Shown piece by piece: positions 37,996 to 43,367 of a DNA stretch of 64,000 bases. Source of the stretch: Candidatus Heimdallarchaeota archaeon (GTDB lineage: Archaea; Asgardarchaeota; Heimdallarchaeia; Hodarchaeales; Hodarchaeaceae); contig DXJL01000104.1 in NCBI GenBank assembly GCA_019057635.1, forward strand, positions 32,001 to 96,000. Reading direction: 5' to 3'. Numbering within the stretch: position 1 is the first letter of the stretch; each line of letters starts with the position of its first letter. The position numbers were made by a program, and so were the translations under genes. The notes beneath the pieces were generated by a model. The model searched no databases, was not told the DNA's origin, and saw nothing but the letters and a program-made list of their open reading frames with translations.

Positions 37996-39942
37996 TTGGC
38001 CAGTAACAATCCCAAACTTGCTTTTATAAGAAGTATTGCCCAACAAGCTCGAAGATTGGAACATGAAATTTCCTCTGAAATGAAAAGCAGTGTAAATAAA
38101 CTTTATTCACGACCGAAATCCTACTATACGTTGCAAGATGTAGAAGAAGTCATAGAAAGCTTAAAAGAGAAAATGATTGTTTTAAATAAGGAAGCACATA
38201 CAGAATTTTCCAAAAGAGGGATGAAAGACATTGATAATATTGACCTTGTGCAACCAGAGTCAGATTCAACACTTATAGCAAAATCTGAACTTCAAAGATT
38301 GCAGAATGAGATTGAATCCTTAAGTCAGCAAGCAACAGATTTGTCACCCTTTGAAAAAAAAATTGCCGATTTGGAAATCTTATTAGAAGAAAAAGAAGCA
38401 GAAATTTCTCTTTTAAATTCAAAGACTGGGTTAACATCTGAAAAATATCAAAATCAATTAGAAGAGATAAATCGTATCCAGGAGCTACTTGATGAAGCTC
38501 AAAGAGAATTGAAACAGACAAAATTAGAAAGGGACAAAATTGAAGCGGAGTATGAAGTCATAGGTAATACATTGATGACTACACGTTTAGAAATTGAGGA
38601 ACTACAGACAGTAATAGGAAACAAGGATATAGAATTAGAAAACTTGAACTCGGAAGTACAAGTTCTTACTAGTCATGCAGAAGATAATATTATTCTAAAA
38701 GAACAGAACATTAAGCTAAATGACGAGATAGCAAATCTCAAAACAGTTGTTCAAAATGAAATTGAGAAGGTAAAAAAAGCATCTTCTAAACAATCGGATG
38801 ATCTGTTAGAGGATAAAGAAGCTCTGAATTCACAAATTAGAGAAATTAAAATTGCTATGGCTGAATTAGAAGAAAAAAATCAAATATTGGAGAAAGAGAA
38901 TGAAGATCTTTTAATTGATTCAGGAGAAACGACTGAAGAAGCCTTAACTGTTAGAAAAGAATTATCTGAATCTAGAGTTTTGCTTGACCAGAAGATCAAG
39001 GAAAATGAAGACCTGAATCGTCGATTAAGCGATCTTGAAAATCAGGTTGAATTGCAAGAAAAAGAGAAAGTCGAATTTAAACAAAAACTTGCATCAAGTG
39101 AATCTTCTAGGGAAAAAGTGGAAGGCAATTTGACACATACACAACAAGAAATGGACGATAAGGATGCGCTTATTGAAAAAATTCAATTGCGACTTCAAGA
39201 AGCAAAAGAAGCAGAAGATAAATTACGTACTGAAAATCGTGCTTTTGTAACTTCAACAGAAGACTTACAAGTGGAAATCCAAGGTAAAAATGAACGAATT
39301 GACGTAATAGAAAAAGCTTTGAATGAAGCCCGAGAAAATCTAGCTAATTTGAAAATACATTTTGAAAAACAAAAGTCTTCTATACTCGAGCAGGAGACCC
39401 AACTCAAAACAAAAGACTTGGAAGTAGTTGAAGCAATGAAGGAATTAGACACCATCAGAGAGAAACATGAAAATTTGAGGGAGGAGATTGATGGTTCAAG
39501 AACAAAGAGTGCGGCTTTTGAGCGACAAAAAGAGACATACGATATAGAAATTAAGAGTCTAGGACTCCAGCTTGCTGAAGCGAATAAGGAAAATAAAAGA
39601 TTAGATAAGAAAATTAATTCGTTCAAGAATGAAATCACAAAGAGTAATGGGGAAAATGATGCTCTTAATCGTCAGGTAACAAAACTGAAAGAGGAATCTG
39701 AACAGTATAAACAAGCTGTCGAAGTTCTGAAAATAAATCTGTCCAAAAATCCAAAATATGCGATACTCTTTGTTCTCCAAGATATCCAACAGGCTTCAGT
39801 GGAAGAATTGGCTAAAACTGTCGCAATTCAACTTGTATTTGCAGAACGTCTGATGAAAGAATTAGAATCTGAAGGATGGATTGATTACAATGTAGATCGA
39901 GCACAAGTCACCCTGAAAAGAAGTTTCTTAGATCTTGAATAA
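37996..39942 (+). CDS. Long coiled-coil protein with C-terminal winged helix
   Basis: ~480 aa of heptad-rich sequence; C-terminus ASVEELAKTVAIQLVFAERLMKELESEGWIDY. Confidence 0.85.
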   Translation: MASNNPKLAFIRSIAQQARRLEHEISSEMKSSVNKLYSRPKSYYTLQDVEEVIESLKEKMIVLNKEAHTEFSKRGMKDIDNIDLVQPESDSTLIAKSELQRLQNEIESLSQQATDLSPFEKKIADLEILLEEKEAEISLLNSKTGLTSEKYQNQLEEINRIQELLDEAQRELKQTKLERDKIEAEYEVIGNTLMTTRLEIEELQTVIGNKDIELENLNSEVQVLTSHAEDNIILKEQNIKLNDEIANLKTVVQNEIEKVKKASSKQSDDLLEDKEALNSQIREIKIAMAELEEKNQILEKENEDLLIDSGETTEEALTVRKELSESRVLLDQKIKENEDLNRRLSDLENQVELQEKEKVEFKQKLASSESSREKVEGNLTHTQQEMDDKDALIEKIQLRLQEAKEAEDKLRTENRAFVTSTEDLQVEIQGKNERIDVIEKALNEARENLANLKIHFEKQKSSILEQETQLKTKDLEVVEAMKELDTIREKHENLREEIDGSRTKSAAFERQKETYDIEIKSLGLQLAEANKENKRLDKKINSFKNEITKSNGENDALNRQVTKLKEESEQYKQAVEVLKINLSKNPKYAILFVLQDIQQASVEELAKTVAIQLVFAERLMKELESEGWIDYNVDRAQVTLKRSFLDLE

Positions 39943-39982: not shown

Positions 39983-40843
39983 TTGATGCAAGTACAAATG
40001 ATTCTTAGCAAGTGTAAAGAGAATTTAGTTGATTTAGATGATCACATCATTCTTATTTTGAAGGCTATTGATCAAAATATCAGTATTATTGTAGAAGGAG
40101 AATCAGGAACAGGGAAAACAGAACTAGCAAAAACCATTGCTTTTGCCCTTGAAAGGCCATTTTACAGAGTTGATGGAGATGAAAATCTAACAATTACACA
40201 ACTTCGTGGTTGGTTTGATCCGTCTTTAGTCATCGAATCAGGTTTTGGAGAAAAATCTTTCATACCAGGTCCTCTAACATTGGCAATGTCAAAAGGAGGA
40301 TTATTCTTCTTTAATGAAGTCAATCGCGCGCCAAGTGAATCAATTAATGGAGCACTTTCTGCGATGGATTCCAGCGAAAGATCCATTGAAATTCCACAAT
40401 ATATGAATATTAAGGCAAGAGACGATTTTTATACAATTTTTACCCTTAATCCTTCAGAATATATTGGTACTAATCCGTTACCTGAAGCATTTTTTGATAG
40501 ATGCATTAGAATCCATTTAACACATAAAACTGGAAAAATTGCAGAGGAAATAGTCAAATTAAGGACTAATTGTGCTGATGATGACTTAATACACAAATGT
40601 GTATTATTCACTGAAAAAACTCGTTCCAATACTGATTTCGAACGTGGTGCAAGTATTCGAGCAGCTATTCAGTTAACGCAATTATTGATGAATGAAGAAA
40701 ACCAAGATAAACACATAATTCAAGCGATCAATGCAGTTTACTCTGGTAAAATTAAACTACAACCTGATATTTCTCGATCAGTCGAAAAGTGTTTACATGA
40801 GATAGCTGACGAGGTTTTTTTTGAGAATAGACCAAAAAACTAG
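39983..40843 (+). CDS. MoxR-family AAA+ ATPase
   Basis: GESGTGKT; FIPGPLT.AM..G; Walker B variant FFFNEVNR; TLNP.EY.GT.PLPEAFFDR; ASIR. Confidence 0.92.
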   Translation: MMQVQMILSKCKENLVDLDDHIILILKAIDQNISIIVEGESGTGKTELAKTIAFALERPFYRVDGDENLTITQLRGWFDPSLVIESGFGEKSFIPGPLTLAMSKGGLFFFNEVNRAPSESINGALSAMDSSERSIEIPQYMNIKARDDFYTIFTLNPSEYIGTNPLPEAFFDRCIRIHLTHKTGKIAEEIVKLRTNCADDDLIHKCVLFTEKTRSNTDFERGASIRAAIQLTQLLMNEENQDKHIIQAINAVYSGKIKLQPDISRSVEKCLHEIADEVFFENRPKN

Positions 40844-41874
40844 AAAAGCGGGACGGAGAGCCCGCGGTATCAGAACACTCAATTAAATTATCTCACCCTA
40901 CTCATCAGTATGATCTGATTGAAACTATCCTTGAATATCGACTTCAGCAAAAGCTTGATACTTCGAAAACTATCGAATTTACAGAACAAGCACTCAAATC
41001 GCGAAATTTGCATGCAGTTGAAATACTAGCTGAATCATATCCTCACGTCGTGGCAGACGTCATACAGATGGAAAATTTCGACTCTAATCTTGTTTTAGAA
41101 TCAAAAAGTCTAGTTTTTCAAATAAAAGATCATCTAGATCCCTCAATTGAAAAAAAATTGATGCAAATACTAATCCCAAGGATGATAAAACACTCTGAAT
41201 CATTATTTCATAGCATCGATCGTTCAAAATATCCTATCCGAATACCATATATGCCAGGGAGAAAATGGAATGTCGAAAAAACTGTAATGAAATTCTTGGT
41301 TTCAGGGGATACAAATTTAAACTACTCACATGTCGTTTGTGAGGAACGAAAAGAAAGGAAAGCAACAGTAGTCCTCCTAATTGATAAGAGTCACTCCGTT
41401 ATTCAGCACTTGAGATTTATTATTATTTCAGCAATAATATTCAGTTTAGCATTACAAAATAAAGATATAAGTATAATTAGTTTTGACACACGACCATCTG
41501 TAGTTAAGAGTATGAAAGATAGGCGCGACTCAAGTACTCAAATTGTGAAAAAACTGATAAAACTTAGCTCAGGTGGAAAAACTGATATTTATTCTGCTCT
41601 GTTAAAAGCTCAAAAAGAATTTTCTACTGTCATAAGCAGAAAAAAAACACTCGTACTGATATCCGACTTATTAGCAACGTCTGGAGAGGACTTTTTACCT
41701 ATTTTAAGAACATTTAACGATGTTAGGATCATTGTAACACCTAGGCGTCAGACTTTACAACTGACAAAACCTCTACTCGGCCATTTACGCAGAATGAATA
41801 ATGTCAAATTATTTCTCTTACCCGAAAATGAACGATTAATCCTTAATATGTTAGAAAAGGTTTTATTTTTTTAA
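40831..41874 (+). CDS. vWA (MIDAS) domain protein; probably the C-terminal part of a frameshifted MoxR-vWA fusion
   Basis: IDKSHS, GGKTD and LISD motifs. The frame is open from 40831, -1 relative to MoxR, with no ATG/GTG/TTG until 41008. Confidence 0.85.
   Translation, partial: TKKLEKRDGEPAVSEHSIKLSHPTHQYDLIETILEYRLQQKLDTSKTIEFTEQALKSRNLHAVEILAESYPHVVADVIQMENFDSNLVLESKSLVFQIKDHLDPSIEKKLMQILIPRMIKHSESLFHSIDRSKYPIRIPYMPGRKWNVEKTVMKFLVSGDTNLNYSHVVCEERKERKATVVLLIDKSHSVIQHLRFIIISAIIFSLALQNKDISIISFDTRPSVVKSMKDRRDSSTQIVKKLIKLSSGGKTDIYSALLKAQKEFSTVISRKKTLVLISDLLATSGEDFLPILRTFNDVRIIVTPRRQTLQLTKPLLGHLRRMNNVKLFLLPENERLILNMLEKVLFF
40834..40865 (+). promoter_or_regulatory. Putative -1 programmed ribosomal frameshift signal
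   Basis: A_AAA_AAC at 40834-40840, in phase with MoxR and just before TAG; 7-nt spacer; hairpin GCGGG (40848-40852) / CCCGC (40861-40865). Confidence 0.75.
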
Positions 41875-41876
41875 TC

Positions 41877-43367
41877 CTAATTGTTGGACACTATATCTTC
41901 AGAATTTGTGGTATCAGGTTGTTCACTTAGAATCTCATCAAGAATCTTGCTGTAATTTTGTGGATGAAAGATTTTATATATTTGTAGGATTCTTGTCCTG
42001 AAACTTGGGTGATCACTATCTTTCTCTGGAGTTTGTAGGATTTCATGCTCAAATACCATTTTTTGAGGATGAGAAAGTAATGTAACAATAAAATTATCAA
42101 GTTCTTCTGCTTCTAAGTAATAACTTTCGTCTGAATCAAACTTTCTCCAATCAATTGTCTTTTCCTTCAACTTAGTCGGAGTGAGGACTTCATCATTTTC
42201 AACCATCGATTCGAAAAACTTTGTTCGTTTTTCCAGTAATGAAGGAACAGCCTGCGTTATTAGCTGATCTCGATAATCTAGATCTATTTTTAATCCATAG
42301 GCTGTCATTAATCGATGTAGCTTTTCCTCGAGAAAAATCCTTGGAGCCATTTCTCTGGCTACATCCTCATTTAACTGAGTTCGAGGGAATCGATGATTTA
42401 TATTACGCATAAAATCAGCTGAAGGTTTTTTTTCTCCTGCTAAACCATTTAGCCATTCAATCTCGTGAGATAAGATTTGCATTGTTTCACTTCTTTGACC
42501 CAGATGGATCAACGAGTTGATCAAGATATCGGATCCGACTGTTTGTGCAGCGAAATAATCAGACAAAAATTCAGCCTGTCTATTTGCTGAATACAAGAAC
42601 CTTACAGTAAACTTTGTTAGTATTGCTATGACTAAATATATTAATCCCAAAAATAATGTTCTCTCTATTGCATCAATTAATCGAAATGTTTCAAACAGTG
42701 CATTTTGGATACCGGTTAGAACCTGGAGATAAATGAATAAATAAGCAAGATTAAGAAATAAACGAGGTATAGACAAGATTAGCCGAAACAAGCTATCCCC
42801 ATGTTTAACATGGGCAAGTTCATGTGCTACAACTGCTTCAATCTCATTATCACTAAGAATTTCTAGCACATTTGTATTTAATACAATATAAGGTCTTCGC
42901 AAAAATGGAATTGGGATCAAATCCAGACTAAACGCATTAGGTACGCTTTTTCGATAAATAAATATCTTTTTGACCTTAATTTTTGTTCGTTCTGCGACAT
43001 TTGAAACAATATTTATTGTTTTATTAACTAGCTTTTCCTCTTCTGGTAAGTGAGCCATACCTTTCTTAGGTAGTGGGAAAATTTGTATCATATTCTTGTT
43101 AGAAAAAACAACATTTACTAAGAAGATTAATAATAGGATTTGTAATCCTCCTGTGAGGATTACCAGAACTGCAGTGAATCGTAATTCTGAAAATGGATTA
43201 ATTGAAATGTAAAAACCGAGAATTTTTGCGAAAGTGAAATCTGATCCTTCATCTGGAATTTGACTGATAGAAATCCAAGATACTATAATCATTTGCAGGA
43301 GTGTTAATAAGAAAAATACACTTGCATTAAAAAAACGATATACGCGGATCCTTCTAATTGAAACCAT
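41877..43367 (-). CDS. M48 (HtpX-like) membrane zinc metalloprotease with an inserted region
   Basis: PNAFS, EIEAVVAHELAH, EFLSD, DHPS..RI; TM helices. Confidence 0.9.
   Translation of the reverse strand: MVSIRRIRVYRFFNASVFFLLTLLQMIIVSWISISQIPDEGSDFTFAKILGFYISINPFSELRFTAVLVILTGGLQILLLIFLVNVVFSNKNMIQIFPLPKKGMAHLPEEEKLVNKTINIVSNVAERTKIKVKKIFIYRKSVPNAFSLDLIPIPFLRRPYIVLNTNVLEILSDNEIEAVVAHELAHVKHGDSLFRLILSIPRLFLNLAYLFIYLQVLTGIQNALFETFRLIDAIERTLFLGLIYLVIAILTKFTVRFLYSANRQAEFLSDYFAAQTVGSDILINSLIHLGQRSETMQILSHEIEWLNGLAGEKKPSADFMRNINHRFPRTQLNEDVAREMAPRIFLEEKLHRLMTAYGLKIDLDYRDQLITQAVPSLLEKRTKFFESMVENDEVLTPTKLKEKTIDWRKFDSDESYYLEAEELDNFIVTLLSHPQKMVFEHEILQTPEKDSDHPSFRTRILQIYKIFHPQNYSKILDEILSEQPDTTNSEDIVSNN

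Follow-up and report, generated by a model that had tools for sequence, protein, structure and literature searches.

A conserved slippery heptamer and downstream RNA structure point to one gene that probably encodes both a MoxR-like ATPase and an ATPase-vWA fusion in Heimdall-group Asgard archaea

Introduction

The Escherichia coli gene dnaX yields two forms of an AAA+ subunit, tau and gamma, in a ratio set by -1 frameshifting on an A-rich heptamer that has a hairpin downstream and a stop codon close by. The dnaX shift makes the shorter product, whereas the shift predicted at the locus described here would make the longer one. This locus lies in a 64,000-nucleotide (nt) stretch of contig DXJL01000104.1 from a Candidatus Heimdallarchaeota archaeon (the window, whose positions serve as coordinates throughout), where the open reading frame (ORF) of a MoxR-like AAA+ ATPase, hereafter the 0 frame, meets a second ORF in the -1 frame that encodes a von Willebrand factor A (vWA) domain. 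From comparison with related genomes, we consider programmed -1 ribosomal frameshifting the likely explanation of this arrangement, such that a single gene of Heimdall-group Asgard archaea probably yields a short ATPase as well as a longer protein that joins ATPase and adaptor.

The closest described parallel is the frameshifted chlD gene (fs-chlD), in which a -1 shift at an A-run between the AAA+ and vWA regions yields the small and medium Mg/Co chelatase subunits; fused orthologues are known from other species, and archaeal members have been suggested (PMC3711429, PMC9227772). The window locus resembles fs-chlD in probably deriving AAA+-only and AAA+-linker-vWA subunits from one gene by a -1 shift in the linker at an A-rich site, and in appearing in public annotation as two adjacent genes. 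It differs from fs-chlD in its ATPase clade (AAA_5/MoxR-like), in its Heimdall-type Asgard host, and in its short A6/A7 heptamer coupled to a tightly spaced hairpin. There is also no known link to ChlH/CobN here (a genome search for ChlH/CobN was not made), the neighbors being a coiled-coil protein and an M48 peptidase. By its ATPase part the locus does not qualify for the ChlD/BchD/CobT chelatase family: the chelatase-type AAA+ profile (Mg_chelatase, PF01078) gave no match at E up to 0.01, and scores fell far below cut-off for both BchD-ChlD (TIGR02031, 27.9 bits versus 499.55) and TIGR02442 (15–19 bits versus 779).

Among archaea, a 2021 review names a single demonstrated -1 frameshift, that of Sulfolobus solfataricus fucA1, which occurs in two strains and is full-length in relatives (PMC8211752). 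Like the window locus, this alpha-L-fucosidase gene is an archaeal cellular gene split between the 0 and -1 frames, with a heptamer of the A_AAA_AAT type and a putative downstream stem-loop (PMC1616953, PMC8211752). In fucA1 the shift simply makes the enzyme (PMC8211752), whereas at the window locus the site is conserved over two families and the 0-frame product is a complete domain. The protein pairing itself is also familiar: like NorQ/NorD, CbbQ/CbbO, and CoxD/CoxE, the locus combines an AAA_5 (MoxR-class) ATPase with a vWA protein bearing a metal-ion-dependent adhesion site (MIDAS), but those partners are encoded by separate genes, while here they would be joined through putative recoding, and the Walker B motif carries Asn in place of Asp. 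Our literature searches on Asgard, MoxR, and chlD frameshifting found no description of such a locus, with the qualification that the supplements of the chlD papers, which list frameshifted gene clusters, could hold related entries.

Results and Discussion

A phased heptamer and a hairpin at the junction of two frames

The ATPase ORF ends with AGA CCA AAA AAC TAG, and the features of the junction are collected in Table 1. Seven nucleotides (40841–40847) separate the heptamer from the candidate hairpin, which consists of 5 base pairs (bp) plus one further pair across a bulge, its right arm reading GCCCGC. The two frames overlap by only 13 nt, with the A-run inside, and the first ATG, GTG, or TTG in the -1 frame is the TTG at 41008, which is codon 60; none occurs in the preceding 59 codons. 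A first-pass annotation, made from the sequence alone, had proposed this ATPase 3′ end with its correctly phased heptamer, the GC hairpin 7 nt beyond it, and a -1 frame open through 59 startless codons, and each of these elements was located where it had been placed. The combined heptamer-plus-hairpin pattern occurs once in the window, compared with 0 in 100 shuffles, and has no second copy in the 3.19-Mb genome, so that a repeated element is excluded.

A second homopolymer lies close by. The T8 run at 40815–40822, which codes for a conserved Phe-Phe, contains an in-phase T_TTT_TTT located 12 nt before the A-run. As a candidate part of the signal it was rejected, as a -1 slip there meets TGA at 40822–40824 and the run is absent in the second family described below. 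The U-run transcribed from it could pair with the A-run.

Table 1. Features of the locus and its neighbors, in window coordinates
Feature	Position	Strand	Remarks
0-frame ORF, MoxR-like AAA+ ATPase (AAA_5), 286 aa	39983..40843	+	stop TAG; start codon TTG
Slippery heptamer A_AAA_AAC	40834..40840	+	phased X_XXY_YYZ in the 0 frame
0-frame stop TAG	40841..40843	+	immediately 3′ of the heptamer
Candidate stimulatory hairpin	40848..40865	+	stem GCGGG (40848-40852) / CCCGC (40861-40865), 8-nt loop
-1-frame ORF, 347 codons: linker, helical domain, vWA/MIDAS domain	40831..41874	+	opens right after TAG 40828-40830
Linker, -1-frame residues 1-23	40831..40899	+	conserved KK..RD..PA, then variable stretch; predicted disordered
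Helical domain, -1-frame residues 24-128	40900..41214	+	begins 36 codons before the first possible start codon
vWA domain, complete MIDAS motif	41323..41871	+	D185-x-S187-x-S189 at 41383-41397, T251, D279
Coiled-coil protein, 648 aa, upstream neighbor	37996..39942	+	neighbor conserved within genus
M48 metallopeptidase, 496 aa, convergent downstream neighbor	41877..43367	-	neighbor conserved within genus

The -1 arrangement is shared by 42 genomes of two families

When 41 related genomes were searched with the -1-frame protein, 20 genomes of the window's genus, its own included, gave matches at 46–100% identity. The match begins at residue 1–3 of the -1 frame in 17 of these 20 and at residues 9–27 in the other three, one of which is truncated where its contig ends. 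Relative to the ATPase frame, the vWA frame is at -1 in every one of the 20 loci, with an overlap of 13–91 nt that always holds the A-run; the open vWA frames measure 311–368 aa (the shortest being the locus cut by the contig end) and never ~630 aa. A scan of a species-level genome collection yielded 41 loci, 40 of which hold both ORFs, the remaining one having lost an ORF to a contig end, and the -1 relation was found in 40/40. The two sets overlap, and their union comprises 42 distinct genomes: 20 of the window's genus (Hodarchaeota/Hodarchaeum and Heimdallarchaeota), whose vWA proteins are 46–95% identical to that of the window, and 22 from another family within its class, Heimdallarchaeia (the second family), in which identity is 29–33%. 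In all 42 the vWA frame lies at -1 with an A-run in the overlap, and no in-frame AAA-vWA fusion was found among these 42 genomes.

Homopolymers are error-prone and the frames of the window overlap by only 13 nt around the A-run, which raises the possibility of an artefact or a decaying gene, that is, a miscounted homopolymer or a recent frameshift mutation in a fusion gene. We regard this explanation as scarcely credible: the same -1 relation recurs in 42 independent assemblies with runs from A6 to A13, and both halves are still conserved as protein at 29–49% identity. For the window itself, contigs from three runs of three studies, with few substitutions relative to the window and one of the runs possibly being its source sample, agree on A6 with no indel, which confirms the run length and speaks against an assembly error that had converted A7 to A6.

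The length of the run varies, while its phase does not in short runs

Run lengths within the genus are A6 in seven genomes, A7 in eight, A9 in one, A10 in two, A11 in one, and A13 in one, and the second family has A7 in 22 of 22. All 37 of the A6 and A7 runs begin at codon position 3 despite differing preceding codons among the 41 junctions compared; two of the four longer runs among these junctions also begin there, as does the A13 run. The A9 run begins at codon position 1, yet includes in-phase heptamers. The base following A6 is C in six genomes and T in one, a genus member that thereby carries A_AAA_AAT, and the 0-frame stop begins 1–15 nt past the end of the A-run in the 41 junctions.

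The downstream structure is held at a fixed distance and covaries in the second family

Seventeen of the 20 genus genomes have the core stem GCGGG(A)/(T)CCCGC, which comprises 5 pairs in one of these genomes. It lies exactly 7 nt past the heptamer in all 16 genus loci with A6–A9 runs, a spacing held although the spacer sequence and the position of the 0-frame stop vary among loci. For the six core pairs of the stem, pairing is preserved in 99 of 102 cells; the loop and flanks are variable. The codons that make up the stem are used infrequently in this genome (CGG for 8% of Arg, GAC for 19% of Asp, CCC for 16.5% of Pro, and GCG for 10.8% of Ala; usage from 1189 long ORFs). Furthermore, in a 15-sequence codon alignment of the 347-codon frame, the seven 5-codon windows with the highest third-position identity all fall within codons 1–11 (0.77–0.86, compared with a mean of 0.44).

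The second family has a different hairpin at the same place. It is composed of an inner helix of 7 bp and an outer GGU/ACC helix, the latter beginning 8 nt past the run in the most frequent variant. Here 6 of 11 pairs show compensatory changes on both sides, 87% of cells are paired compared with 28–56% when the partners are slid, and the covariation score was reached by none of 500 shuffles. Because the sequences are related, these shuffle counts overstate significance; the slid-partner controls, which keep the relatedness, still fall far short of the observed pairing. On this comparative evidence the signal is under selection as RNA, and the locus presents an in-phase heptamer, a structure 5–9 nt downstream, and maintenance of that structure in evolution, the features expected of -1 frameshift sites.

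Ribosomal slippage compared with slippage of RNA polymerase

The same two proteins could arise by programmed transcriptional slippage, in which RNA polymerase adds one A and a share of the mRNAs encodes the fusion in frame. The long genus runs (A9, A10, A11, and A13) favor this explanation, and so does the behavior of frameshifted chelatase genes (PMC3711429), in which reporter efficiency rose with poly-A length and reached 40% with 9 A's and 63% with 11. Of the four genus genomes whose runs reach A10 or more, three lack the complete hairpin and the fourth keeps 5 bp, compared with 0 of 16 lacking it among those with A6–A9, and it is for the A10–A11 genomes that polymerase slippage is most plausible. 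For the window and six other genus genomes, however, the run is only A6, which is a poor slippage template for the polymerase. The phase is fixed in 37/37 A6/A7 runs and the hairpin stands at a fixed 7 nt, neither of which matters to the polymerase, and in the second family A7 coexists with a covarying structure downstream. Fixed phase, 7-nt spacing, and downstream structure are not needed by polymerase slippage, and ribosomal slippage is therefore favored; we judge transcriptional slippage unlikely as the account of the locus as a whole. According to PMC8211752, heptamer phase, spacing, and downstream structure make up the defining layout of -1 ribosomal frameshifting.

The genus members with A10–A13 are loci L039, L040, L019, and L041. 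Relative to a near relative, L039 has three extra A's and lacks 6 nt of the left arm of the stem, with the frame preserved. Two of the three long-run genomes without a complete hairpin are close relatives, and the losses therefore represent about two independent events.

Several points weigh against programmed -1 ribosomal frameshifting. Considered alone, the window hairpin is weak (-10.1 kcal/mol, z = -1.74, with 10 of 200 shuffles folding equally well), although conservation in related genomes lifts the combined heptamer-plus-hairpin signal well above chance on these comparisons. The genus stem never varies and therefore yields no covariation, and its conservation could in principle serve another RNA-level role. 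Loss of the complete hairpin from the long-run genomes described above suggests that a long run suffices by itself, possibly through polymerase slippage. The substitution of Asn for Asp in Walker B leaves ATPase activity uncertain as judged from sequence. No RNA run containing the locus was found, and all of the genomes are metagenome bins; only assembled contigs were compared, and the comparison is therefore silent on transcript slippage and on expression. Finally, according to PMC8211752, fucA1 is the sole demonstration of archaeal frameshifting at sites of this type.

The -1 frame is coding upstream of its first start codon

In a 17-sequence alignment of the -1 frame, a KK..RD..PA motif, which is encoded by the slip site and the hairpin stem, is conserved and followed by a variable stretch, and conservation resumes near residue 28. 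Upstream of the window's first start codon lie the invariant A54 and the almost invariant N59. The AlphaFold (AF2) model of the -1-frame protein has a mean predicted local distance difference test (pLDDT) score of 83, with residues 1–24 below 50 and predicted to be disordered, and the vWA fold following the helical domain of residues 24–128. Ten-residue blocks from residue 31 to residue 80 average pLDDT 89–92, and helices H24–38 and H44–56 both lie upstream of TTG 41008; in this model, initiation at codon 60 would remove two helices of the helical domain. The -1 frame is coding, conserved, and devoid of a start of its own, and the alignment and model indicate that it is translated from the slip site onward.

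Alternatively, the locus might comprise two ordinary neighboring genes, with the vWA protein starting alone by reinitiation or at a non-canonical start and with the hairpin and A-run serving as intergenic regulatory signals. This arrangement exists in paralogous MoxR+vWA pairs of related genomes, which are separate genes (in one case with an ATGA overlap and in another with ATG 7 nt past the stop), and a 4-nt ATGA overlap also yields a -1 relation; in addition, many second-family loci have an ATG 65–71 nt past the stop. Nevertheless, the first start codon within the genus varies between loci, two of which have none in the first 80 codons, and the frame overlap can be as short as 13 nt and then lacks a start codon. 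The conserved, well-folded residues 24–59 precede the first start in the window. In the second family, 3 of 22 loci lack the Met that otherwise occurs ~30 residues in, and the preceding stretch varies in the manner of coding sequence, with codon-position entropies of 0.72, 0.54, and 1.02 at positions 1, 2, and 3 (figures for the vWA frame only, since control frames were realigned separately and are hence not comparable). Fused orthologues, described below, present both parts as one polypeptide elsewhere. We consider two separate genes very improbable on this evidence, and programmed -1 frameshifting remains our preferred reading: the first-pass annotation had singled out A7 in the reads or an independent vWA start in orthologues as grounds for abandoning it, and we found A6 and no independent start, with heptamer phase, hairpin, -1 relation, and pre-start codons all conserved.

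Many of the second-family loci L046–L067 contain a GGGGATGAAC motif 40–75 nt after the 0-frame stop that holds an ATG in the ATPase frame. This ATG opens a short ORF, which in L046 ends at a TGA overlapping the Met of the vWA frame; the coincidence may be due to chance.

Separately, the genome that holds the window also carries (L024, G000:C113:16400-20331) a paralogous MoxR-like gene with a vWA match at 25% identity ~680 nt downstream, detected in an HMMER-based search; the corresponding pair in relatives consists of two ordinary genes.

Relatives make equivalent products by fusion or by gene duplication

Database proteins of 618 and 621 aa, from organisms named Hodarchaeales and Odinarchaeota archaeon, contain AAA_5 and VWA domains in a single ORF. 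Residues 24–278 of the ATPase align to residues 13–267 of these fusions, and residues 27–345 (or 30–332) of the -1 frame align to 293–617 (or 301–607) of the fusions. Given this collinear alignment of both frames, the frameshift site falls in the linker of the fused proteins. Among 301 genomes of the phylum, three other families yielded additional single ORFs of 636–650 aa, and in the two of these that were scanned, Pfam recognized AAA_5 and a VWA domain.

In a two-gene relative from the same class (L069:1486-4244, minus strand), an AAA-vWA gene of 638 aa begins 8 nt beyond a 277-aa AAA-only gene. ATPase motifs are retained in the standalone copy, whereas the fused copy has GKR in Walker A and Q-E instead of N-E, and has lost the residues that we take to be the sensor-1 Asn and sensor-2 Arg. 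By sequence this fused copy looks like a ChlD-like inactive ATPase, with a division of labor in the style of BchI/BchD within the MoxR class, and on the same comparison the pair is the two-gene equivalent of the two products expected at the window locus. It supports the idea that both AAA-only and AAA-vWA products are needed. The linker of the fused gene also holds an in-frame CCG AAA AAA, a hint that a Lys-Lys pair in the linker gave rise to the slippery run.

Proposed mechanism and implications

The signal with its phase, spacing, and conservation, the coding continuity over the junction, and the fused and two-gene equivalents can be read directly from the genomes compared. We infer that the ribosome, rather than RNA polymerase, slips at this site, that it does so with some set efficiency, and that the two products co-assemble and act on a cellular client. 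In this scheme most ribosomes would translate the AAA+ ATPase and stop at the TAG at 40841, producing the 286-aa MoxR-like subunit. A fraction would stall on the GC hairpin 7 nt downstream with Lys and Asn tRNAs on A_AAA_AAC, and these ribosomes would slip back one base and continue through the disordered linker, the helical domain, and the MIDAS-bearing vWA domain to yield a fusion of ~630 aa. How often slippage occurs would determine the proportion of plain ATPase to adaptor-bearing subunits, and both types presumably assemble into one ring, in parallel with BchI/BchD, NorQ/NorD, and the products of frameshifted chlD.

A broader history is offered here only tentatively, as a possibility that we would not put ahead of its negation. 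The recoding site may date at least to the common ancestor of the two Heimdallarchaeia families and may be genuine -1 frameshifting by the ribosome at a classically arranged heptamer, spacer, and stem, which would make it the first deeply conserved cellular case known in archaea. Its origin might be two adjacent Lys codons (AAA AAA), in frame within the linker of an AAA-vWA fusion gene, and relatives would solve the same stoichiometry problem either through simple fusion or through duplication and decay of one ATPase site. Lineages with A10 or longer might have moved to hairpin-independent slippage, perhaps by RNA polymerase.

If correct, the favored reading would provide a rare conserved case of programmed frameshifting in archaea, in a host group to which the closest archaeal relatives of eukaryotes belong. 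The locus would be a clean test case for frameshifting by the archaeal ribosomes of this lineage, since phase, spacing, and covarying structure can all be measured. The principle of one AAA+ gene giving two subunits by recoding would extend from the chelatases to the MoxR/vWA chaperone class. Gene callers will split such loci into an ATPase and a truncated "hypothetical VWA protein."

Domains and family placement of the two products

Pfam assigns the 0-frame ORF to AAA_5 (E = 8e-18; 65.2 bits versus a gathering cut-off of 22) and AAA_3/MoxR (1e-11), and residues 165–284 of the -1 frame to VWA_CoxE (2e-10) and VWA_2 (2e-9). Walker A of the ATPase is intact (GESGTGKT). Walker B reads FFFNE (40291–40305), with the Glu present, and the first-pass annotation had called this motif atypical. 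The departure is real and extends across the family: N-E, within FFFNE or FFYNE, occurs in the 40 orthologous ATPase ORFs reported by the scan, and also in three paralogues encoded as separate genes (ILFINE), in the standalone relative, and in the two database fusions. The presence of N-E in all these relatives makes it a family trait rather than a peculiarity of the locus. Sensor-1 Asn, DR-motif Arg, and sensor-2 Arg were assigned from the alignment at what we take to be the motif positions.

Among PDB sequences, matches to the ATPase included bacterial MoxR (2r44, 35.6 bits), NorQ (32.9 bits), and CbbQ (32.4 bits), the latter two with E of ~4e-7. Eukaryotic midasin ranked far above these by E-value, but a link to midasin/Rea1 was rejected, as its whole-protein E of 6e-26 is a sum over eight repeat matches and its best module scores 34.4 bits, equal to MoxR, NorQ, and CbbQ. 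Compared with NCBIfam equivalogs, the ATPase reached no cut-off, including that of GvpN (72.9 bits versus 266.8). For the vWA protein, a profile search of PDB sequences gave no match at E up to 0.01, and relatives came from the fold search only: with the -1-frame model as query, the top Foldseek matches were NorD chains of NorQD complexes (E = 7e-9 to 1e-7), followed by the MIDAS domain of Rea1/MDN1. MIDAS residues D185, S187, S189, T251, and D279 are invariant in 17 sequences.

Start of the ATPase and flanking genes

An alternative start for the ATPase ORF, the ATG at 39986, is preceded by GGTGA and may be the real start as judged from this context. When the window's flanking proteins were used as tblastn queries, neither neighbor was found beside the second-family loci; all matches belong to the window's genus and concern loci that extend far enough, with the coiled-coil protein matched at 40–95% identity in 17 of 41 loci and the M48 metallopeptidase at 56–98% identity in 18 of 41.

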